IMG/VR virus record: IMGVR_UViG_3300044695_007092
Span: 11,321-75,320 of that record
Source: a virus
DNA: 64,000 bases
Reading direction: 5' to 3' (one strand)
The first letter of the stretch is position 1, and every line of letters starts with the position of its first letter. Shown in pieces: positions 19,075 to 60,495 of the stretch. The notes beneath the pieces are model-generated. The model was not told the DNA's origin. It made no database searches and saw only the letters and a program-made list of their open reading frames with translations. A program made the translations under genes and the position numbers.

Positions 19075-19887
19075 ATGACCTTAAAAAGAATAGCATTATT
19101 TACCATAATTCAGAACGAAGACTTCTTTCTAAACATATGGTTAGAGTATTACAAGAAGTATTTTCCAATAGAGGATATATACGTTCTTAATCATAACTCG
19201 ACAATAGAGTCCTGTTTGAAAATTCTGAAGAGCGCAAAGGAATCAGGAGTAAACGTAATACCAGTACATAGGGACTTCAGCTTTGATCATGCTTGGCTTA
19301 GGACTACTGTTGAAAACTTTCAAAGATTTCTTCTAAAAAGTTATGACTATGTCATGTTTGTTGAGATAGATGAAATAGTTGCTCCAGACCCATCTCGTTA
19401 CAAATTAGGAATACACCAGTACATATTAGACGCATTCAATGACAGTTCTGTTAATGTATTGAGGTGTGTCGGATTTAACGTAGAACACACTCCAGCTACT
19501 GAGCCTGATATGGATCTTAACTCTTTAGTATTATCTCAAAGATCAAAGTGGCGTAGGTCTTATATATACGATAAGCCACTAATATCTAATATTCCTCTTG
19601 AGTGGGTCAACGGTTTTCACTGGTTGACCACTATGAAGACACCACCAGTAAGACCAGATCTTATTCTTATTCATCTGCACAAGATGGATTACGGCCTATG
19701 CAAGAAAAAACATGCAGAGTCTGCAAAAAGAAAATGGAGCAAGTACGATATTGAAACCTTACAAGGCGAGCATAATCGAATCGATAGCGGGGCTGAATTT
19801 GAGCAATTCTTTTTTGGAGGTAACCGTCATCAAGAGGTTGATAACTATCTTGTAGACATACCTCCTCATTTTAAAGGAGTAGTGTAA
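19075..19887 (+). CDS. Glycosyltransferase (GT-A, GT2/GT92-like)
   Basis: FTIIQNEDFFLNIWLEYY, VEIDE DxD-like, YDKPLI, WVNGFH, LIHLH. Confidence 0.75.
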   Translation: MTLKRIALFTIIQNEDFFLNIWLEYYKKYFPIEDIYVLNHNSTIESCLKILKSAKESGVNVIPVHRDFSFDHAWLRTTVENFQRFLLKSYDYVMFVEIDEIVAPDPSRYKLGIHQYILDAFNDSSVNVLRCVGFNVEHTPATEPDMDLNSLVLSQRSKWRRSYIYDKPLISNIPLEWVNGFHWLTTMKTPPVRPDLILIHLHKMDYGLCKKKHAESAKRKWSKYDIETLQGEHNRIDSGAEFEQFFFGGNRHQEVDNYLVDIPPHFKGVV

Positions 19888-21155
19888 TGGCGTCGGCATT
19901 AGACAAGGTTTTAATTTCTAACAAATGCATTGCAGGTACTCCTTTTACTTACGCGTCTCTTGTCATGCCTACATGTAGGTTAGATGCAACTGTTAACTTT
20001 TTTAGAGAGTGGTCTGAAAGCTTTAAAGATAGTCTAAACACCATACACATTGTGTACGACGGCCCCTCCTCGTCTATACCTGATAAAATTATACAGGACA
20101 TAAAGTCATACAATATCAATACTTATATACACTCTTGGGACGCCTTATTCATAGGCGATAAAGTTGAAGATGATGTTGTACGTAAGATGCCTGCAACTTT
20201 AGAAAGTCTAGAGGCCTTAGGTATTAAATGCTTTAGCAGAAAAGACTCAGCAATAAGGAGCTATGGTTTTCTCGTAGCTGCTACTTATGCAAAATTAAAG
20301 TCACATAATCGTCTACTTCCTGAAGACCATATCATATACACACTTGATGATGACTGCATGCCGCTATGTGACATCTCCGAAAATAAAACAAGTTTCTTTA
20401 ATAAGCATGCAAACAACTTATTAAGTTTTGGATCCTGGTCTTCAACAGTTCCCGGAGTAAGGGTAAGAGGGCTCCCGTACTATACTAAGAACAGATATAA
20501 CTACAGTGTTAAAGATGTAGTAATGAGCATGGGTACTTGGAAGGGCATACCGGACTTTGACGCAGCTCAGAGACTATCTTTAGGAGAAGGATCTGACAAA
20601 GTCGAGCTTCCTCTGCTAATCGAATCAGTTATGGCTCACCCTGGAGTTTTATACCCTATATGCGGTATGAACCTAGCATTCAGGGCTAGCATGCTTCCTG
20701 CTGCTTTATTTGCTCCTATGGGTACGGCTTCTAATTACAAAAGATTTGATGATATATGGTTTGGTATATTTGCACAGGCTGTGTTATCGATATCTAAAAA
20801 TAACTGGTGTTACGGCCAGCCTCTCATATATCATGCTAGGTTAAGCGGAGCCATGGATTGCTTGGTTGCAGAAGCGCCTGGAATAAGGCTCAACGAATCT
20901 CTATGGATGTACGTTAGGGACTCTATAGATAATTATGCAAAATGTGGTAATAGCTTTAGCTCTAATTCTATTATCAAAGCAGCTGAGTACGTAGTAAAAG
21001 CCATGTCCCATTACAAAGACACGGCTAATACTGTTTTTGAAAAATACGATAAAGAGTGCACAGACTACATAACACTATGGTGCGAGTGCTTAAGTAACTG
21101 GCTCTCTCTCACTGATAGATATGTTTTTTGTGATAAAGGCGTCATTAGCGCATAG
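19887..21155 (+). CDS. GT75 reversibly glycosylated polypeptide / UDP-arabinopyranose mutase-like protein
   Basis: KDSAIRSYGF, YTLDDDC, VRGLPY, GTWKGIPDFDA, YPICGMNLAF, RFDDIW and GQPLIYH match plant RGP motifs in order. Confidence 0.85.
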   Translation: MASALDKVLISNKCIAGTPFTYASLVMPTCRLDATVNFFREWSESFKDSLNTIHIVYDGPSSSIPDKIIQDIKSYNINTYIHSWDALFIGDKVEDDVVRKMPATLESLEALGIKCFSRKDSAIRSYGFLVAATYAKLKSHNRLLPEDHIIYTLDDDCMPLCDISENKTSFFNKHANNLLSFGSWSSTVPGVRVRGLPYYTKNRYNYSVKDVVMSMGTWKGIPDFDAAQRLSLGEGSDKVELPLLIESVMAHPGVLYPICGMNLAFRASMLPAALFAPMGTASNYKRFDDIWFGIFAQAVLSISKNNWCYGQPLIYHARLSGAMDCLVAEAPGIRLNESLWMYVRDSIDNYAKCGNSFSSNSIIKAAEYVVKAMSHYKDTANTVFEKYDKECTDYITLWCECLSNWLSLTDRYVFCDKGVISA

Positions 21156-21390: not shown

Positions 21391-22113
21391 ATGCGTAAAA
21401 TGCCAGCTAAAGCAAGACATCCTAAGCTAGACGAGGCTTGGGAAAAATACCAAAATTTGATCAGATGGTGGGCAGCTAAGCTAAATAAGTGGTACAGTAG
21501 ACTAACTAGAACAAAAGTAAATGACACAGGTTCGATAATATCGTATCTGTTCTTAAAGCTAAATAATGCTCTCTGGCTATGGGATCCTAAAAGAGGAATT
21601 AAATTCAGCACATACTTTTCAGCTCATATCCACTTTCAGTTCAGAATTCATTATCTAAGATTTGAATCAGACAAAGAAAGTGCCAGCTTTGTAAATAGAT
21701 TCTCGCGTAATAAAACATCATTCAAGTGCAGAGTATACCACGAAACTTTACTACTTCGCTATTGGGGCGAGGGTAGAAAAGAGTCAGGCTTTATTTCTGC
21801 ATATCTTGATATAGAGCACAAAGATAGAAAAGACTATTACAACTGGGTACACGATCTTATAGAAGAACTGGGAGGTGTAGAGAAAGCATGGAAAATCTTT
21901 ACTATGACCATAAATAAAAGATCGGCAGATATACTTCATCGTAGGTTTGTACTAGGTGAAACCCTAGAACAAATAGGCAGGCATTACAAGGTTACAAGAG
22001 AAAGGATACGACAACTAGAATTCTTAGCAATGATGTCTTTAAAGGACAAATTTAAAAACAACAAAAAGCTAGAGGCTCTAGTAAAACGGTACGGTTTAGC
22101 TATCAAAGATTAA
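21391..22113 (+). CDS. Sigma70-family RNA polymerase sigma factor
   Basis: Region 2 WDPKRGIKFSTY and region 4 TLEQIGRHYKVTRERIRQLE. Confidence 0.88.
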   Translation: MRKMPAKARHPKLDEAWEKYQNLIRWWAAKLNKWYSRLTRTKVNDTGSIISYLFLKLNNALWLWDPKRGIKFSTYFSAHIHFQFRIHYLRFESDKESASFVNRFSRNKTSFKCRVYHETLLLRYWGEGRKESGFISAYLDIEHKDRKDYYNWVHDLIEELGGVEKAWKIFTMTINKRSADILHRRFVLGETLEQIGRHYKVTRERIRQLEFLAMMSLKDKFKNNKKLEALVKRYGLAIKD

Positions 22114-22167: not shown

Positions 22168-23328
22168 ATGACTGACCTTCTTAATAATATTAAGTTTACA
22201 TCAAAGCCCATAGCAGTAATTAGCTCAGACTGGCACATGGCCTTAAATGCCTGGAAGAAACATCCAGGCATAAAAGGAGATGCAGAGTTTTCTCTTTCTC
22301 AGACCGTAGACATAGCTACTCATCTTGGAGTTCCTATCATAGGGGCTGGAGATCTATTTGATGTTAAGACTCCCGATTCGTATTCCGTCAGCGCCGTAGC
22401 TAGACAGATGGCTAGAATGCACGAAAAAGGGCTTCCTGTCTATTACGTTCAAGGTCAGCATGAGATGTCTGACCCGGCATGGATGAGCTTGTTTCCAGGC
22501 TGTCATAATGCTCATGACAAGAACTTTACGATAGGCAGTATAAGCTTTTTTGGGTACGACTACTTTTTACCAAAGTCTGTAGAGGATTCCTACAACCGGT
22601 TCAAGCCGGCTGATATATTAATAACGCATCAAGTATGGTCCGAGCTTCTTCCCAGGCACGGCCAAAGCTTTTGTTGCTCATACAGCTTGATATCACAGAA
22701 CAACACATATAAAGCGATAGTCAGTGGAGACTATCATTCCCACTTCAAAGACACCATCTACAACACAGGGTGCCTCTTTGTATCTCCTGGCAGTTCATGT
22801 CTGCAAGACATGAATGAATCCCCAAATAAAGCCATATGGGTTCTAACTGAAAGCATGGAGTTTATCTCTGTACCTATAAAGGCAAGAAGACTGACCAATG
22901 TAGTTATACAGTCTGATAACGACTTATTTGTATCTGTCAGTCTTGCCGATAGCCTTGTGGAGGACGCCTTTCCTAACGGAATAGGTAAGCCTATCGTAAG
23001 GGTTAAATACAATACAGAAATAAAGAACGTTTACGCTGCCATGAATAATGCATACAAAGATAAAGCCTACTTAGACTTTAAGCCTATCATGGAGGACGAC
23101 ATCACGGACGAGCCTATTGAGCACCACCCGATAAAACTCATAACAAGCTCAGCAGATGAGATATTTTGCGAGTCTTTAGAGGAATGCCTTCCTTCTAATC
23201 ATAGAGGACTGTCAGACATAGTAAGAATATGGAGGACATCTAATCTTGATGAGCTAAGGAAAGAAATATCAACAATAGCCGATGAAATAAAAAATATTGA
23301 TAAAACTGAACAACTGGGGGCCAAATGA
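22168..23328 (+). CDS. SbcD/Mre11-like metallophosphoesterase nuclease
   Basis: SDWH, GDLFD, GQHE, THQ, SGDYH, SPGS. Confidence 0.88.
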   Translation: MTDLLNNIKFTSKPIAVISSDWHMALNAWKKHPGIKGDAEFSLSQTVDIATHLGVPIIGAGDLFDVKTPDSYSVSAVARQMARMHEKGLPVYYVQGQHEMSDPAWMSLFPGCHNAHDKNFTIGSISFFGYDYFLPKSVEDSYNRFKPADILITHQVWSELLPRHGQSFCCSYSLISQNNTYKAIVSGDYHSHFKDTIYNTGCLFVSPGSSCLQDMNESPNKAIWVLTESMEFISVPIKARRLTNVVIQSDNDLFVSVSLADSLVEDAFPNGIGKPIVRVKYNTEIKNVYAAMNNAYKDKAYLDFKPIMEDDITDEPIEHHPIKLITSSADEIFCESLEECLPSNHRGLSDIVRIWRTSNLDELRKEISTIADEIKNIDKTEQLGAK

Positions 23329-25460
23329 AACTTGAAAGACTAAGGCTAAAAAACTTCTGTCAGCACAGAGAACTTGATTGGTCTTTTCCAAATGGAATTG
23401 TAGCCATACTTGGGCCTAATGGTTCTGGTAAATCAAATGCGGTCAAGGCGGCTTACGCTGCCTTGACTGGTGATTTCAAAAGGAATGAAGGTGTTATAAC
23501 CGACAACATAAGTAAGACTTGTCTTGAAAAAGACGAGAGCTATGTTGAATTAACGTTTTCAACTAGTGGAAACGTCGCCACTATTACTAGGCATTTAAGA
23601 CCAAACAAAAGATCTTTGGTAATAAACGGAGGAAAGCCTATAACCTCCGAAAAAGATATAGCAGTAGCTATAGAGGGTCTAATAGGAATAAACAATGACA
23701 TACTAAGCGACTATATCTTCGTAGATCAGTGGAAGATGTTCGAAGTGTTTACGGCTTCAAAATCTGAGAGGATGTCAGCGCTTCAATCTTTATACGGTCT
23801 TGGCAGGGCAGAGGTATGCTATGACGAGATATCAAAGATATCTGGAAAAATAAACATACAGATGCCGTCTGAGTCCATAGAAGATATACAAGCACACATT
23901 AGAGAGAAGAGCCTGTTGCTAAGTTCTCTTCAATTATCCATAGCGCCTATAAGCCATGAGTCAATGGACGACTCGCTTCTGCAGAACCGCCTAAAGGTTA
24001 TAAGGCAGGTTAAATCGGACATGACTCAGATAGTTTCTATAAAGTCTAACTTAGAAAAAGCTAGCCTAAGGGTAAAGGAACTGGAGGACGCAGTTCTGTT
24101 AGAGTCAGCGGCATCCATTCTTGATGGCTTTGCAAATATGGATGAGTTAAACTCTGCCTTAACAGAAATAGATAACAGCTTACGCATATGGCATGATATC
24201 GATAGGAAAAACGCCAGGAGATCAGAGATAGAAGCAGCCATAGCTTACTCTACTAAGAAGCTGGAGGATTTAGGTCCTGAACCAGCAAAGCCGATTATGT
24301 ATTACCCGTCTCACGGACCCGAGTTTAATTCTTACAACTCTTTAATAGGATCGCTTGAATCCAAAGTTTCTTGTCTATCTGAACTTAAAGGTAAGAATGA
24401 ATGCCCTATATGCAAGTCGTCTGGTGACGTCTTGGTAGAAGCCACAAAGCTACTTAACGATTCAATAGAAGAATTAGCCCCTATTGTTGCAGCCATGAAG
24501 AAGGCATACGAAGACAGTAGAAACTATGACTCTATACTAAGAGTCTACAGCGAAAAGCACGCAAGACTTAAAGTCAGCGTGGACCGTGATAGTGAAGACC
24601 TAGTTGAGTTATCTAAAATAGAAATAGCTGAGCCAGTAAAAAGCAAAAACCTATGCATTTCTGAGAACGTTAGACTTACCACTATAAGAGGAAAGTACTT
24701 GTCAGCTCTAGAAAAGTTGTCAGAGCTGACATCCAATATAGCCTTTTATAAAGGGCAGGTAGACACTATGTCTGAGCAGGTAGCTAAGCTGGAGGTTGCG
24801 TGCAAAGGCTTTGATGATATCCAAGAATGCGCTGCGCTAGAGGAAAAGATAGTAGGCGATATAGCCACAGCTACGGCTAACAAAGAAAAGTACATAAGGT
24901 CTGAGGAAGCTATAAAGGGCTGTATTGAAACAATAGATATGTTAGAGAAAAGAAGGAACAGAATATCTTTGGACCTGGACGAGGCAAGGGTTAATATCGG
25001 TATTAAGGATCACCTAGAGACTCTAAAGGATGTTCTTCATAGATCTAACCTTCCTAGGAAGGTTGCCGTCAACTATCTAAAGCAGACCGTTGCTAAGATG
25101 AATGGTTACCTTGAAGATTTTAACGCAGTGTTCAGAGTCTACTCTGATGACGAGCTAGTATTCTGGGCTAAGTTTAATGACGGTAGAGAGTTGCCGGCCT
25201 CAAGGTTATCTGGTGGTGAGAACGGTTTACTGTCCATGGCATTTAGATTGGCAGTACAGTTTGGTGTAGCTGCTAGTGTAAATCTTTTAGTTTTGGACGA
25301 ACCCACTGTCGGACTTGATGATGATAACGTAGAATGTCTTGAGACTGCATTTAATAGACTGCGAGCTATGGCTAAATCATCTGGCATGCAGGTGTTAATT
25401 GTCAGCCACGAAAAGGCTATTGAGAGAATGTGTGACCATACGCTATCACTATATAGGTGA
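23325..25460 (+). CDS. SbcC/Rad50-like SMC ATPase
   Basis: GPNGSGKS, coiled coil with CPIC hook, LSGGE, LDEPT, VSHE. Confidence 0.92.
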   Translation: MKLERLRLKNFCQHRELDWSFPNGIVAILGPNGSGKSNAVKAAYAALTGDFKRNEGVITDNISKTCLEKDESYVELTFSTSGNVATITRHLRPNKRSLVINGGKPITSEKDIAVAIEGLIGINNDILSDYIFVDQWKMFEVFTASKSERMSALQSLYGLGRAEVCYDEISKISGKINIQMPSESIEDIQAHIREKSLLLSSLQLSIAPISHESMDDSLLQNRLKVIRQVKSDMTQIVSIKSNLEKASLRVKELEDAVLLESAASILDGFANMDELNSALTEIDNSLRIWHDIDRKNARRSEIEAAIAYSTKKLEDLGPEPAKPIMYYPSHGPEFNSYNSLIGSLESKVSCLSELKGKNECPICKSSGDVLVEATKLLNDSIEELAPIVAAMKKAYEDSRNYDSILRVYSEKHARLKVSVDRDSEDLVELSKIEIAEPVKSKNLCISENVRLTTIRGKYLSALEKLSELTSNIAFYKGQVDTMSEQVAKLEVACKGFDDIQECAALEEKIVGDIATATANKEKYIRSEEAIKGCIETIDMLEKRRNRISLDLDEARVNIGIKDHLETLKDVLHRSNLPRKVAVNYLKQTVAKMNGYLEDFNAVFRVYSDDELVFWAKFNDGRELPASRLSGGENGLLSMAFRLAVQFGVAASVNLLVLDEPTVGLDDDNVECLETAFNRLRAMAKSSGMQVLIVSHEKAIERMCDHTLSLYR

Positions 25461-25463
25461 TTA

Positions 25464-26465
25464 ATGACAAAGCTGATTGATAGTTCCTACTTGAAGGTGA
25501 CTTCAAACGAGGAAGGTGGTATATGGATTATAGATGGCGACAAGATGCCCAAAAAGATGGATATCAAAGTCGACGAGTTTGTAGAAGATGTTGTGGGCTC
25601 TAACAAATATAAATTTGTTAGAGTCCTAGCATCACCTGTTAACTATAACCTAATAACAAAGCTTTACACTTTGAAAGAGAAAGGACACGTCGAGTCCTTA
25701 CAACTGGCCACCCCAGCTCTTATGCAGTCAAATCGGCCGGAGAGTTCTTTACTTCGAATGAGGCTGTGTACTTTACCTGCTTCTCTTGGAGGCTTTCATG
25801 AGGCTACTGATGACGACTTCACTATATACACTATGGCCCGACTAGCTCGAATTCTAAGGTCTATAGAAATAAAGATGCTAGATTGCGGCAACCACATACC
25901 ATTAAAGTTAGAGAGAGAATACAAGAAGGTATGTTCTGTGATGATTGATACTTTAAATACTCATCCAGTATGGCAGTACATTAGTTTTATAGACTCTATA
26001 GATCCTGTGATAGCCGGAGTTGTTCTAGCAAACATAGGCGACCCTAGGTGGTTTGTTAACCCAGACAAGCCAGACAGGCTATCAAGGATGTACTCTTGGA
26101 TGGGCCTGGCAGGTGAGCATAACTGCCCTGACAAGATGTACAGAAAAAATTCAACCATGCTTTGTTGGTACGGCGGTAATTACGGTGGATTTGTTGAGTA
26201 CAAGGACTTTCCAACAATAGTAAAAGATAAACTTAGCGACCCAGCCTGTTTTATATTAAAGCACGCTTATGACACTTGGGGCCCAGAACATGCGGTATGG
26301 CCTAGAGAGAAGATATCTAAGTATTTGATTAAGTTCATAAGACTAGCGTGGCTTGATTGCATATACCCCTACCCAAATCCTTGGATGGAGGGTCTGTTTG
26401 ACTACCGTACTTTCTTTAAATCAAGCAAAGACCTTAAAGAGTTTACTAATTTTATTGAAAAATAA
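25464..26465 (+). CDS. Degenerate IS110-transposase/Nop-domain-like protein
   Basis: HPVWQYISFIDSIDPVIAGVVLANIGDPRWF...LSRMYSWMGL matches the Transposase_20/Nop helix-hairpin segment; N-terminus has RuvC-like strand order without recognisable DEDD. Confidence 0.6.
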   Translation: MTKLIDSSYLKVTSNEEGGIWIIDGDKMPKKMDIKVDEFVEDVVGSNKYKFVRVLASPVNYNLITKLYTLKEKGHVESLQLATPALMQSNRPESSLLRMRLCTLPASLGGFHEATDDDFTIYTMARLARILRSIEIKMLDCGNHIPLKLEREYKKVCSVMIDTLNTHPVWQYISFIDSIDPVIAGVVLANIGDPRWFVNPDKPDRLSRMYSWMGLAGEHNCPDKMYRKNSTMLCWYGGNYGGFVEYKDFPTIVKDKLSDPACFILKHAYDTWGPEHAVWPREKISKYLIKFIRLAWLDCIYPYPNPWMEGLFDYRTFFKSSKDLKEFTNFIEK

Positions 26466-26581
26466 ATAGACGTAACCTGTTACGTGTACAGGCCTTTTCA
26501 TCTCTTTACTAATAAACTTTAATTTCGCAGATTGACTGTTTAAATCTATCGAAATAGAATGCCAAACGAGACGAATATTAA

Positions 26582-26657
26582 AATAAAAATCCCCGACTGA
26601 AGGCAATCAGTCAGGGATCATTTAACACCGCATTACGGGGCGGTGCAGTAAACACTG
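26582..26657 (-). ncRNA. Candidate ~75-nt small RNA
   Basis: Minus-strand TTGACT-N16-TAGACT promoter (26690-26663), CACCGC/GCGGTG hairpin, and a G-U-containing terminator followed by TTTTTATTT. Confidence 0.45.
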
Positions 26658-26726
26658 CATCTAGTCTATAAACACTTTTGCCTAAGTCAATAGATAGCCC
26701 TTCTTAAAAATTTGAAAGGACAATTC

Positions 26727-28256
26727 ATGGAAGTCAATTTTACAATAGGTAATTCCCTATTGCAGGTATCTTCTCCTACCGGAGAGCTTCCCCTTGATCT
26801 AAAGAAAAGACTAGAGAGTAGGCTGAGTTATTCTCACGTATCCTTTAATCACACCGGAGCTTTCAGACGACAACCTGCCTTCTCTTCAGAAGTAAGGACA
26901 GTATTTAAATATGATCAAAAGAACAACCTTGTATGCCCTAGAGGTTTTACAAAGAGATTAAAAGCGGAGTTAAGCTCTTCTGGCATAACTGTAAACGTTA
27001 TCGACCTAGATGGTGAGTATCATAGCAGCCCTGCATTTTGTATAGACTTTGAAAGGCTTAATCAAACTATAAGCCTTAGGGAAAAGCAGGACGATTGTCT
27101 TGCGTCTATTATGTCTAGCAGAGACGGCTTAATAGTAGCCCCTACAGGGTTCGGCAAGTCATTCATGTTCTCTGCAATATGCATGGCCTATCCTGACGCT
27201 AAGATCCATATAGTTACACGTCGTGTAGACGTTATGAAAAGGCTGTATGGTTCCTTATCAAAGCTTATACCAACTGTAGGAATGGTAGGAAGCGGAAGTA
27301 ACAGATGGGGCAGGGTAACTGTAATTACTGCAGACAGCATGCATAGGATAAGCCACTCAGGGGAGCAGTGCGCTGACATACTTCTATATGACGAAGCGCA
27401 TGAAGCAGTAGCCTCCTCTTACCAGTCTGAGCTAGGTAAGTACTTAAAGACAAGGAAGTTTGGATTCACGGCTTCTCCGGACGGAAGAATGGACGGAGCT
27501 CATTTCCTTTTAGAAGCTATATTCGGTCCAAGAATATTCGAGATGTCTTACGACGAGGCTGTAGCATCTAATCTTGTGGTTCCTATAAAGGTTGAATGGA
27601 TTAACGTTGATTGCGTAAATCCATGTGGCGACCTTAATGGCGTTCCAAAGGAGCGCTGGGGTATATGGCGCAATGAAGTTAGAAACCTCGCTATATCTGA
27701 AAAGGCAAAGGAATACAGCGCAGATGATCAGGTACTTATAATGGTCAAATCTGTAGAGCACGCTGTTTATCTTAAGCAGGTGTTACCTGACTTTAAGCTT
27801 TGCTATGACACTATGGATACTGATGACTATCAAAGGTATGTAAAAAAAGGACTTATAGACCCAGCCGATGAACCTCTTATGGTGCCAGCCCGCAGAGAGA
27901 ATATGCGTGTTAAGTTTGAAAGGGGAGAACTTAAAAAGGTAATTAGTACAGACGTGTGGAGCACTGGTGTGGACTTTGCACAGCTAGCAGTTCTTATAAG
28001 AGCAGATGCTCGCGCCAGTAAGATAGTCGACATACAGGCGCCAGGTAGAGTAGCCAGAAAGCACGACCCGTCCGGAAAGAGCAGCGGTCTGGTAATTGAC
28101 TGCATGGATAACTTTGATTTCTCCTTTATGAATAGAAGCAGAAGTAGACGGCTTTCATACAAGAAGATGGGATGGGAAGAAATTCAAAATAAGCTTAAGC
28201 CTCCTATGGAATCTATTGAAGGCATAGACGTTATGGAGGAGGCCTTCGATGAGTGA
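26727..28256 (+). CDS. Superfamily 2 (DEAH) helicase, UvsW/Rad25-like
   Basis: APTGFGKS, YDEAH, TASP, QAPGRVAR. Confidence 0.88.
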   Translation: MEVNFTIGNSLLQVSSPTGELPLDLKKRLESRLSYSHVSFNHTGAFRRQPAFSSEVRTVFKYDQKNNLVCPRGFTKRLKAELSSSGITVNVIDLDGEYHSSPAFCIDFERLNQTISLREKQDDCLASIMSSRDGLIVAPTGFGKSFMFSAICMAYPDAKIHIVTRRVDVMKRLYGSLSKLIPTVGMVGSGSNRWGRVTVITADSMHRISHSGEQCADILLYDEAHEAVASSYQSELGKYLKTRKFGFTASPDGRMDGAHFLLEAIFGPRIFEMSYDEAVASNLVVPIKVEWINVDCVNPCGDLNGVPKERWGIWRNEVRNLAISEKAKEYSADDQVLIMVKSVEHAVYLKQVLPDFKLCYDTMDTDDYQRYVKKGLIDPADEPLMVPARRENMRVKFERGELKKVISTDVWSTGVDFAQLAVLIRADARASKIVDIQAPGRVARKHDPSGKSSGLVIDCMDNFDFSFMNRSRSRRLSYKKMGWEEIQNKLKPPMESIEGIDVMEEAFDE

Positions 28257-28950
28257 AAGCCTTGAAACACTGGCCCTAGAAGCCCGCAGGCTGTATTGCG
28301 CTTTTATGTCAAAGCACATAAAGAACACAAGCGGTATCGTAAGCGAATACGGCCGAGGAATAATGCCGCACTATGACGGTACGTCGACTGAAAAGCCGAA
28401 GCATGGTAAGGCCATAGTGCATAAAAGTGGAAAAGATTATAAGCCTGTATGGCCTAAGATAGCTAAGTCCGCAGTCTCTGGTACTCTTACTGTAATAGAG
28501 CTTATAAGAGCACAGTTTGATTCATCTGTAGGCGGAGCTCCGTCTGCAAATTCGTGTCACGGTAACAGGGCTGTAGGGTTAGCTCTATCTAGAAGGGAAT
28601 CCGCAATACAGGAAAGCGCAAACCTATTGAATTCTTTTAAGAAGACTATAGATATTGATCTTACCAACATGCATAAGTTACTAACATCAAAACAGGCTGT
28701 AGCAGATGTTGTTCTTCTTAGTAAAGTTCCGTCTATATGCAAAGTTAACATACTTATGCTTATGCAACTTGAAGATAGCATACCTGATGAAGTTATCTTC
28801 GATGCGGTAGAGGATTATATGCTAAGACCAGACATATATGATGCAGCTTGGGGAGGAGCACTCCATAGTTCTTTTATAGAAAAGGCAATAAGACAAATAA
28901 AAGCCAAAAGAATTGCGCTAGGTATAAAGACAGATAAAGTAATTTTATAA
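28249..28950 (+). CDS. Hypothetical protein (possible helicase loader, by position only)
   Basis: GGAGG RBS; lies between two helicases. Confidence 0.55.
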   Translation: MSESLETLALEARRLYCAFMSKHIKNTSGIVSEYGRGIMPHYDGTSTEKPKHGKAIVHKSGKDYKPVWPKIAKSAVSGTLTVIELIRAQFDSSVGGAPSANSCHGNRAVGLALSRRESAIQESANLLNSFKKTIDIDLTNMHKLLTSKQAVADVVLLSKVPSICKVNILMLMQLEDSIPDEVIFDAVEDYMLRPDIYDAAWGGALHSSFIEKAIRQIKAKRIALGIKTDKVIL

Positions 28951-38022: not shown

Positions 38023-38113
38023 TAATTAATAATTGATATGCCTCTTGTTAAGGCGAGAGGCATGTCTATCTTCACGTATTTACAATAATTTACATATACA
38101 TATAGAGGGCATC

Positions 38114-39304
38114 ATGGCCAAGAAGAAAGTAGACTTAGCACAGAGCACATTCACTGATTTTTTCTCCACACAGATTAGTTCATCTCAGAACAATATAGGA
38201 AGAAGCGACATATACATGGGCGACGAGTCCCAAGCTGTCGTAATAGGTATTCCTCTTAAGGCTTTTAGCCTTAGGTACTTCTTTCAAAATGATTGTTTTC
38301 CTTTGTCCAGAATGACCGAGCTGTATGGGCCTAGCGGTTCATGCAAGACGGCATTACTGTTTGAGATGTTCAAGTGGCATGTGGATTTTTCTGGAGGTTA
38401 TGTCTACAACCTTACTGAAGCCAGGGATACCCCTGACCTTAGATCAAGTATAATAGGTCATGAAAAAGATAAAGGGTTTCCAACAAACCTATGCGGGTCT
38501 GTAGAAGAGTGGCAGAGAAGTATTACCTTGTGGCTGAAGCAGGGTAGAAAACTATGGCCTAATCTTGGAGGCTGTCCTTTTCCAGTTGCTATTGGGGTAG
38601 ACTCCTTGACCGGAGTAACAACCGAGTCAGACATCAGCGACATATGGGAAAAGAACCACGCCTCTATCGGATTTGCAAAAGGTGCTAATCTTATTAACAC
38701 TTACTGCAAGTTCCTATTCAACGAGCTAAGAGTATGGCCGTTCAGCTTCATAGGCATTAATCACGTAAAGGTATCTAAGGATGCAAGAGGGTTTACCATA
38801 AAAAGGGTACCCGGCGGCGATGCCTTGACATACCATGCCACCATGAAGATATATACAAATCTTAAAGATAAGATAGAAAAGCTTAAAGAGTCTGTAAGAG
38901 TTGTAGAGCTCTCTATGGAAAAGAACTCCTTAAGCAACGCAGGAGAAAACAGAGTCATAACCGTATCCATGAAATGGAGCGTTGATGATGAAGGTAAGCA
39001 ACATACTTTATGGGATTGGCACGAGGCTACAATAGCAACCATACTCTCTATGTCAGCTACCTTGAAAGGTAAAGCTTGCGACCTCCTAGGTCTTGATAAC
39101 ATAGACAAGTCTAGGAAAACAGCAGACTGCTCAGCTCTAGGCCTTACTAAGGCTAGCTGGACAGAGATAGGACAAGCTATAGAAGACAACAATGATTTAA
39201 GAGAAGCGTTAGATAAGATGCACGGTATCAGAAAAAGAACTCCATTTAAAATTGGAGTTCCATACTGTGATCAGATGTCTGGCGATTACGAAAGGGATGA
39301 GTAA
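38114..39304 (+). CDS. RecA/UvsX-like recombinase
   Basis: TELYGPSGSCKT, GVDSL, FIGINH, PGGDALTYHA, MEKN. Confidence 0.85.
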   Translation: MAKKKVDLAQSTFTDFFSTQISSSQNNIGRSDIYMGDESQAVVIGIPLKAFSLRYFFQNDCFPLSRMTELYGPSGSCKTALLFEMFKWHVDFSGGYVYNLTEARDTPDLRSSIIGHEKDKGFPTNLCGSVEEWQRSITLWLKQGRKLWPNLGGCPFPVAIGVDSLTGVTTESDISDIWEKNHASIGFAKGANLINTYCKFLFNELRVWPFSFIGINHVKVSKDARGFTIKRVPGGDALTYHATMKIYTNLKDKIEKLKESVRVVELSMEKNSLSNAGENRVITVSMKWSVDDEGKQHTLWDWHEATIATILSMSATLKGKACDLLGLDNIDKSRKTADCSALGLTKASWTEIGQAIEDNNDLREALDKMHGIRKRTPFKIGVPYCDQMSGDYERDE

Positions 39305-60224: not shown

Positions 60225-60251
60225 CGTCTTGAGCAGGACGTTAAACTGCTT
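60225..60251 (+). repeat. Pseudoknot motif copy 1
   Basis: CGTCTTGAGCAGGACGTTAAACTGCTT. Confidence 0.85.
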
Positions 60252-60272
60252 CATTTGTAGTTTATCGCTGGT

Positions 60273-60299
60273 GTCCTGAGTAAGACTTTAAACTGCTCA
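60273..60299 (+). repeat. Pseudoknot motif copy 2
   Basis: GTCCTGAGTAAGACTTTAAACTGCTCA. Confidence 0.85.
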
Positions 60300-60445
60300 T
60301 ATTTATGGCACCGGAGGTAAAGCCCTCTGGCCGTGCACGCCGGCAGCGTGGTAGGAAACCCACCAAGGAAATGGGGTATGGATGAAACTTCCATATATCT
60401 CCCTATACCCACGGGAGATATTGCTCGCACCTTGAGGGAAGGTGC

Positions 60446-60473
60446 CGTCCTGGAGCAGGACGTTAAACTGCTC
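60446..60473 (+). repeat. Pseudoknot motif copy 3
   Basis: CGTCCTGGAGCAGGACGTTAAACTGCTC directly before the T-run. Confidence 0.85.
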
Positions 60474-60495
60474 TTTTTTTAGCTATCACACACTC

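Follow-up and report, generated by a model that had tools for sequence, protein, structure and literature searches.

A single-copy TasR/IS110-superfamily protein in the sbcD-sbcC operon of uncultured phages and its possible non-catalytic role

The gene considered here, termed X, is an open reading frame (ORF) of 333 amino acids (aa) at positions 25464-26465 (plus strand, ATG to TAA) of a 64-kb window, which is the whole stretch of DNA that was analysed and is itself part of the 75-kb IMG/VR virus record IMGVR_UViG_3300044695_007092 (CheckV completeness, 36%). An initial annotation of this DNA had observed an IS110/Nop-type protein in the replication region, an observation that is confirmed far beyond chance by the comparisons described below. 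X occurs once in the contig and, across a large lineage of phages that have not been cultured, it is a core gene fixed in a single copy; most of these phages have sizes of 100-230 kb. Near-identical DNA is found in 20 DNA runs from 17 studies, most of which are labelled as lake-water metagenome and the others as unspecified metagenomes; none of the 20 holders listed is an RNA dataset carrying the X locus, all being DNA contigs.

Gene order and transcription units at the X locus

The upstream sbcC-like ORF terminates with a TGA at 25458-25460, which is followed by TTA and then by the ATG of X, and this gap of 3 nucleotides (nt) bears out the spacing that had been noted before. The features of the locus are as follows.

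22168..23328 (+): SbcD/Mre11-like phosphoesterase, first gene of the operon (Pfam Metallophos_2, weak; phrog_1649; phrog_100, SbcD-like)
23325..25460 (+): SbcC/Rad50-like ATPase, 711 aa (SMC_N, 1.3e-19; AAA_23; phrog_77, SbcC-like, 3.5e-41)
25464..26465 (+): X
26476..26492 (+): terminator-like hairpin followed by CCTTTT (consensus scan; similar hairpin in relative L001; weak evidence)
26532..26560 (+): sigma-70-type promoter of the helicase unit, TTGACT-N17-TAGAAT (10/12 match to the consensus)
26580..26690 (-): candidate cis-antisense small RNA (sRNA), ~75 nt (promoter TTGACT-N16-TAGACT at 26690-26663, three hairpins, terminator)
26712..28256 (+): superfamily 2 (SF2) DNA helicase (Pfam ResIII and Helicase_C; phrog_16, 3.7e-45), located after X in all loci
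28249..28950 (+): 233-aa protein without a Pfam or PHROG family, between the SF2 helicase and DnaB genes (41-70% identity in nearer relatives)

Genes for a DnaB-like helicase, a primase and PolA lie farther downstream of the 233-aa protein gene, and a UvsX-like recombinase is encoded at 38033-39304, which together with the SF2 helicase places X in a recombination/replication setting. The conservation of this arrangement was examined in 95 IMG/VR loci (31 retrieved by close alignment and 64 by distant alignment, some sharing contigs) on contigs of 6-230 kb. The order sbcD-sbcC-X-SF2 helicase-(u233)-dnaB-primase(-polA) was observed in all of them, down to 22-24% identity of X, the only exceptions being loci truncated by the end of a contig, and the sbcD gene lies upstream of sbcC in every locus extending that far. 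In 90 of 93 loci, the nearest X start is situated between -31 and +27 nt from the sbcC stop, often with an overlap. X also changes at the pace of SbcC (SbcC/X identity pairs of 62/62, 52/50, 48/36, 38/32, 30/28, 26/27, and 27/25%) and faster than the helicase, PolA, and primase. Synteny in relatives, which had been proposed as a check, therefore shows X at a fixed position in a recombination/replication module. Distant relatives (L010-L030) possess an additional plus-strand ORF of 146-190 aa without a Pfam family between X and the helicase (for example, L012:11042-11614 and L023:10968-11477), which is missing from the subclade of the window.

The promoter at 26532-26560 is the sole site of its type in the window, and TTGAC-N17/18-(A)TAGAAT-like boxes occupy the equivalent position in the seven nearest relatives that were inspected (L001-L005, L007, and L008). 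Since this conserved promoter follows X, X is the last cistron of the sbcD-sbcC-X operon and the helicase gene opens the next unit. The promoter could mark an early transcription unit or, speculatively, a transcription-primed origin; no change of direction in the cumulative GC skew was seen around 26.5 kb, which leaves an origin at that place unsupported. The promoter is followed by an AT-rich stretch, the two together occupying 26532-26592.

Just upstream of sbcD, the phage encodes two glycosyltransferase-like proteins, one GT2-type and one RGP-like, as well as a sigma-70 region-4 protein (19075-21155 and 21391-22113, plus strand), and the glycosyltransferase pair is retained in several relatives (L003-L007 and L026). 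These genes may indicate that the phage glycosylates DNA or proteins and has a sigma factor of its own. Bases 1-257 of the contig, upstream of the window, begin within a collagen-like GGCCCTCAA (Gly-Pro-Gln) repeat of ~26 copies, and because the contig starts inside this repeat, the record is a fragment broken within a repetitive structural gene.

Fold, family, and active sites of X

An AlphaFold2 model of X based on an alignment of 65 sequences was predicted with high confidence (predicted local distance difference test, pLDDT, 95.8; predicted template modelling score, pTM, 0.92) and consists of three parts.

25464..25805 (+): aa 1-114, RNase H/RuvC-like alpha/beta N-domain without a DEDD tetrad (model topology b1-b2-b3-a-b4-a-b5-a)
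25806..25958 (+): aa 115-165, coiled-coil-like helical hairpin (helices 116-140 and 147-164, 25 and 18 aa)
25959..26465 (+): aa 166-333 and stop, helical Nop/Transposase_20-like C-domain without a catalytic Ser (hhalign, TasH match)

When this model was compared with the PDB by Foldseek, only TIGR-TasR (9MTY), IS621 (8WT6/8WT9), and ISCro4 (9T56) were matched at a probability of 1.0, which includes IS621 and TasR, two of the proteins that the initial annotation had named for such a comparison. Alignment by VIA-align gave the highest score for TasR (Z 14.0, 253 aa aligned, model 8-328), followed by IS621 (Z 10.9) and ISCro4 (Z 10.8), each with about 260 aa, and by the TasH C-domain (Z 10.7, model 118-331). 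When 48,161 representative chains were searched independently of Foldseek, only the TasR, TasH, and IS110 (IS621/ISCro4) families reached a Z of at least 8, with TasR at 13.8 (253-255 aa aligned over the two comparisons), the TasH C-domain at 10.3, and IS110 recombinases from 10.1. The N-domain alone resembles a variety of RNase H-like modules at Z 5-7.5, including YqgF/RuvX, the YqgF-like domain of SPT6, the MutS connector, the TerL nuclease, integrases, RuvC, and the RuvC domains of TnpB/Cas12.

A typical short family member, P0021, was also modelled (pLDDT 94.6) and is again closest to TasR (Z 11.3; TasH, 8.7; ISCro4, only 6.8). The hairpin varies in length: its helices have just 13 and 9 aa in P0021, and the segment between Y122 and H167 spans 43-47 aa only in the window subclade and in the family member P0103, compared to a family median of 23 aa. 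A homodimer prediction for X returned a score of 0.00 and no verdict, and is evidence neither for nor against a dimer.

The kinship with IS110 can also be recognized in sequence profiles. As controls, we used ten transposases from Planctomycetota genomes, each Pfam-verified to contain DEDD_Tnp_IS110 and Transposase_20. By hhalign, the X family matched them with a probability of 91.6% and an E-value of 8.1e-7 over 138 columns (X 122-297), spanning the second hairpin helix, the HhH-like DPxRF and GLxP motifs, and the C-terminal helices; judged by these profiles, the C-terminal half of X is homologous to IS110 Tnp_20. In addition, the 'transposase' family phrog_4285 matches X at aa 159-224 (E 1.7e-6) as well as 14 of the 65 family members, and the nearest Atlas clusters carry PF02371. 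The N-domain of X alone has no significant hhalign match to the IS110 N-domain (E 0.49), and that alignment served as a topological guide only. Likewise, the dual-repeat TasH clade, represented by Salicola phage CGphi29 TasH and its homologues, was matched by X with a probability of only 3.6% (E 0.012; the TasH alignment is narrow, Neff 2.2), while it matched IS110 at E 5e-7. Pfam at E up to 10 gave nothing usable for X and the 65 family members, X falling under every Pfam threshold; a six-frame search of the whole contig for PF02371 gave no match; and a PDB sequence search with two X-family profiles gave chance matches only. The structural matches and the IS110 profile homology together support the IS110/Nop/Tas-type fold claimed at the outset. 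X is treated here as a distinct branch of the TasR/IS110/Nop superfamily that has TasR as its nearest relative by structure and is closer to IS110 by sequence profile. Many TasH-type homologues (P0194-P0278) have precomputed PF02371 (Transposase_20) hits, so the 'Transposase_20' label cannot tell Tas from IS110 proteins, and 'IS110 transposase' labels on phage proteins of ~310 aa may often denote Tas proteins.

Nine close homologues of X were found, all full-length, with 27-99% identity (best E 6e-230), and an exhaustive HMMER search yielded 558 clusters (50% identity) at E up to 1e-3, including 244 at E up to 1e-10. Almost all of the 150 best listed clusters have lengths of about 300-340 aa, and no fused long forms (644-2000 aa) were found, which is weak evidence. 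No match was detected in 50,697 GenBank phage records by tblastn with three family members, and no significant match in BFVD. Among 185,579 species genomes, a single homologue was observed (L032; RFHO01000106.1, 5677-6441) on a 6.9-kb contig of a Planctomycetota metagenome-assembled genome (MAG); it is most likely a phage fragment binned with this MAG, and could be a weak hint to the host, although in the present analysis it served only to reach the IS110 control proteins.

The motifs on which the annotation had been based were all located in X: VRVLAS at aa 52-57, LQLATP at 79-84, HPVW at 167-170, IDPVIAGVVLANIGDPRWF at 179-197, and SRMYSWMGL at 207-215. Within the protein, conservation is highest in the Nop-like motifs HPxW...DPRW...GL. 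In the alignment of 65 proteins from which all conservation counts in the family were taken, D193-P194-R195-W196 and G214 are conserved (D193 in 64/65; P194, R195, and G214 invariant), other conserved positions being K11, W21, R53, N60, P84, and R100. The conserved basic residues (K11, R53, R100, R195, R205, R227, R266, R283, and R293) fit a nucleic-acid-binding function.

D7, E53, D90, and D93, as well as the SG of QSG, are invariant in the ten IS110 control proteins. Within aa 1-117 of X, Asp or Glu reaches at least 60% only at D6 (78%), E38 (68%), and E113 (60%), none of which is among the hydrophobic or unconserved positions that lie opposite the IS110 DEDD in a low-confidence topological alignment. 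The QSG aligns to unconserved positions 216-224, Ser reaching a maximum of 12/65 at any column, and SRMYSWMGL runs into AGEHNC with no SG after GL. The lack of a recognizable DEDD and of a catalytic serine had been pointed out for X itself, and both losses hold across the 65 proteins. With neither the tetrad nor the serine, X is predicted to be catalytically dead for both inherited chemistries throughout its family.

The loss of all catalytic residues and the weak 'transposase' PHROG match are what might be expected if X were a functionless, decaying IS110 remnant. The chance of this is practically nil: full-length conservation in 558 clusters, a confidently predicted compact fold, and a single copy speak against it, and its fixed position in the recombination/replication module shows that X is not in decay. 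Conservation and synteny together refute this candidate. As had been remarked, IS ends are absent, which is upheld by the location of a single-copy X 3 nt past sbcC and at the same position in 95 loci.

The family also retains a conserved motif of its own, S107-x-G109-G110-W/F-H112 (S107 in 60/65, G109 and G110 in 65/65, H112 in 59/65), along with the near-invariant Y122 (62/65), H167 (63/65), and D118 (D/E in 62/65). It is therefore conceivable that X is a cryptic enzyme acting via S107, H112, Y122, H167, D118, and R195, for example, in metal-independent RNA or DNA cleavage or in strand transfer. Known fold roles do not explain the near-invariance of S107, G109, G110, H112, Y122, H167, and D118, and there is a precedent in dual-repeat Tas proteins, in which tigRNA processing is carried out by a Tyr/His dyad (Xu et al. 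2026, bioRxiv 10.64898/2026.09.09.750476). However, the published dyad lies in a C-terminal loop, at other positions than in X, and the conserved residues of X are situated at domain junctions and may be structural, which makes such an activity very unlikely in our estimate.

A possible guide RNA for X

The initial annotation went further and proposed that X is programmed by RNA, with guides supplied by the adjacent sRNA or by non-coding RNA cassettes elsewhere in the window. Arrays were sought by TRF, by a direct-repeat search, and by scanning for 6-mers repeated four or more times with a constant period of 28-100 nt, these scans having been run with no positive control. No TIGR-like array was detected in the 75-kb contig, where only the collagen-like coding repeat emerged, or in 32 loci scanned in the same way, in agreement with the earlier remark that the window contains no canonical array. 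Intergenic clustering over the 6-10 kb flanks of X in ~95 loci revealed no non-coding element shared between divergent loci; these loci are densely packed, with just 83 intergenic gaps of at least 90 nt. Rfam and tRNA scans of the window returned nothing.

The candidate sRNA between X and the helicase gene has a terminator whose U-run is present on the minus strand only. It is kept in just one other contig (L002/L045), with ~80% identity and compensatory stem changes, the X protein of that contig being just 50% identical, and it is absent from the other loci among the ~95 examined, including the closer relative L001. A scan of IMG/VR with its core pattern retrieved the L002 contig as the only true relative, besides six chance matches, and its box-C-like word 'AUGAU' is not conserved. 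Taken together, the candidate is a credible small transcript that is probably outside the X system. Its position, antisense to the 5' leader of the SF2 helicase transcript, makes a lineage-specific role in regulating that helicase more likely than service as a guide for X. The proposal that X draws its guide from this sRNA, which is present in only two lineages, is not supported. In the gene-free stretch at 60228-60482, the region of the supposed cassettes, three copies of a 33-nt element were observed, each with a GAGCAG...CTGCTC hairpin and a T-run; this hairpin is too small for two spacers or for a stem-loop tigRNA unit.

These results do not support the RNA-programmed function as originally proposed, as neither an array nor a conserved non-coding element is found near X and most members have no long coiled-coil hairpin, which is the means by which TasR dimerises around a dual-spacer guide. 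RNA guidance of X is possible in principle, with no positive evidence at the loci covered here. In an array-less form of the idea, a dead TasR-like X would load a guide that is encoded at another site of the phage genome or derives from transcripts of the phage or its host, and the DNA-bound protein would direct or exclude SbcCD or repress transcription. The nearest structures to X are all guide-RNA enzymes, its best conserved part is the Nop-like motifs, and only 36% of the phage genome is available. Moreover, naturally dead TasR and TasA are RNA-guided repressors, and 'an alternative guide RNA source' has been considered and left open for an array-less viral branch of TasR (Xu et al. 2026). 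Against this, an array, a spaced motif, and a conserved intergenic element are all absent within 6-10 kb of X in ~95 loci, the sRNA candidate is confined to two lineages, most members are devoid of the coiled-coil dimeriser, and Rfam gave no match. Known guides adjoin or sit inside their effector gene, unlike anything seen at X. We regard an array-less guide as an unlikely but serious explanation, and as the main rival of the one preferred below.

Role of X and its relation to known systems

Our leading reading, held tentatively and with a chance we place just short of even, is that X, a TasR/IS110-superfamily protein with RuvC-like and Nop-like parts, has lost its catalytic activity and been exapted as an accessory of the phage SbcCD, which it would assist by binding nucleic acid without catalysis of its own. 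X would be made in step with SbcCD and would use its conserved basic Nop-like surface and dead RuvC lobe to keep hold of a substrate, be it a DNA end, branched DNA, or an RNA:DNA hybrid; the Mre11/Rad50-type nuclease would then process the intermediate held by X during recombination-dependent replication. In such a scheme, X would be unprogrammed by any array-encoded guide, and the short coiled coil of most members argues against a TasR-type dimer wrapping a dual-spacer RNA.

Several points weigh against this accessory role. The support for binding of X to SbcC, SbcD, or nucleic acid that comes from operon membership and from the similar rates of change is circumstantial. The role does not account for the strongly conserved S107-x-G-G-W/F-H112, Y122, and H167. 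To our knowledge, every characterised relative (IS110, TasR/TasH/TasA, and naturally dead TasR) works with a guide RNA, so an RNA-free X would be an exception. Finally, the data cover 36% of the phage genome and 6-10 kb flanks in the relatives, and a guide could be encoded elsewhere.

The tight coupling of X to sbcC could also be explained if X were a protein-recruiting scaffold, whose dead N-domain recruits an enzyme such as SbcD, the SF2 helicase, or another protein while the rest acts as an adaptor. The precedent is Nop5, the N-terminal domain of which is an inactive RuvC recruiting fibrillarin (Faure et al. 2025, PMC12045711), and the N-domain of X resembles non-catalytic RNase H-like modules such as the MutS connector and the YqgF-like domain of SPT6. 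However, no partner was identified, no fusions above 644 aa were found (weak evidence), and the strong conservation of basic residues in the C-domain speaks for a nucleic-acid ligand having been kept; we consider a pure scaffold decidedly improbable.

A bolder version of the accessory role, which we judge rather doubtful, is that X is an RNA-loaded or R-loop-recognising adaptor that would give the phage SbcCD sequence- or structure-specific targeting. Its guides might be drawn from transcripts and not from an array; alternatively, X might hold an RNA:DNA hybrid at a replication start beside its own gene, at the promoter and AT-rich stretch (26532-26592). If this were true, X would represent a new functional class of the Nop/TasR/IS110 superfamily, tied to DNA-end processing or replication initiation.

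The family is of interest because the newest compact tools for RNA-guided work on DNA come from this superfamily, and because such an array-less family is large, dead in both active sites to judge from its residues, and locked in the SbcD-SbcC operon of widespread large environmental phages. Whether X proves to be an adaptor or third subunit of a phage Mre11/Rad50 nuclease, or a factor guided by RNA from an unconventional source, the known roles of the scaffold would be extended.

TIGR-Tas systems were defined, and Tas, IS110, and box C/D Nop proteins linked, by Faure et al. 2025, whose Data S1, the seed alignment of a custom TIGR hidden Markov model (HMM), includes AF-A0A3M1VGY1. The motifs of this protein are those of P0103, which matches X at E 9.6e-17. 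More recently, 'one long phylogenetic branch' was described that comprises array-less compact TasR without the coiled-coil domain in densely packed viral genomes, and its function was left open by its discoverers (Xu et al. 2026). The X family has thus probably been noticed before, as this array-less TasR branch, for which X now offers a concrete and testable context. As far as the available text of the two papers goes, a fixed SbcCD linkage is not mentioned, and the SbcCD context of an array-less TasR-like family is previously unreported.

TIGR-TasR (for example, TaTasR, 9MTY) shares with X the RuvC-like N-domain, the helical hairpin, the Nop-like C-domain, and a length of ~300-330 aa, and is the best structural match to the models of both X and P0021. 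Like X, it is phage-borne, and dead-RuvC TasR variants exist, such as those of CPR bacteria. In contrast, no TIGR array was found near X, the coiled coil of most X members is vestigial, and X is fixed within the sbcDC operon, whereas Tas loci stand alone. The dual-repeat TasH clade showed no significant profile link to X with the narrow TasH alignment used. By its description, the 'Divergent tas clade' (Xu et al. 2026) is similar to X in being viral, compact, composed of RuvC and Nop domains with a short or absent coiled coil, array-less, and almost devoid of intergenic space, although the window subclade has a hairpin of 25 and 18 residues; in the text available, neither gene context nor function is given for that clade, and the likeness is one of description only.

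IS110 enzymes (IS621 and ISCro4; DEDD_Tnp_IS110 plus Transposase_20) have the same domain order as X, align with it structurally over nearly the full length, and share the DPxRF/W and GL(x)P motifs, but X has no DEDD and no catalytic Ser, lacks non-coding ends that could encode a bridge or seek RNA, and is immobile and single-copy; the short member P0021 is also considerably more distant from ISCro4 than X is. Box C/D Nop5, Nop56/58, and Prp31 are assigned to the same superfamily by Faure et al. 2025. X has no match to the Pfam Nop domain (PF01798) at E up to 10, Nop5 and Prp31 are not among the listed structural matches, the lists being filled by matches to the N-domain, and no fibrillarin or L7Ae partner and no K-turn guide RNA was noticed among the annotated neighbours of X, for which no dedicated search was made. 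Nop5, with its dead RuvC-like N-domain (Faure et al. 2025), is conceptually the nearest precedent for a non-catalytic RuvC-plus-Nop protein like X.

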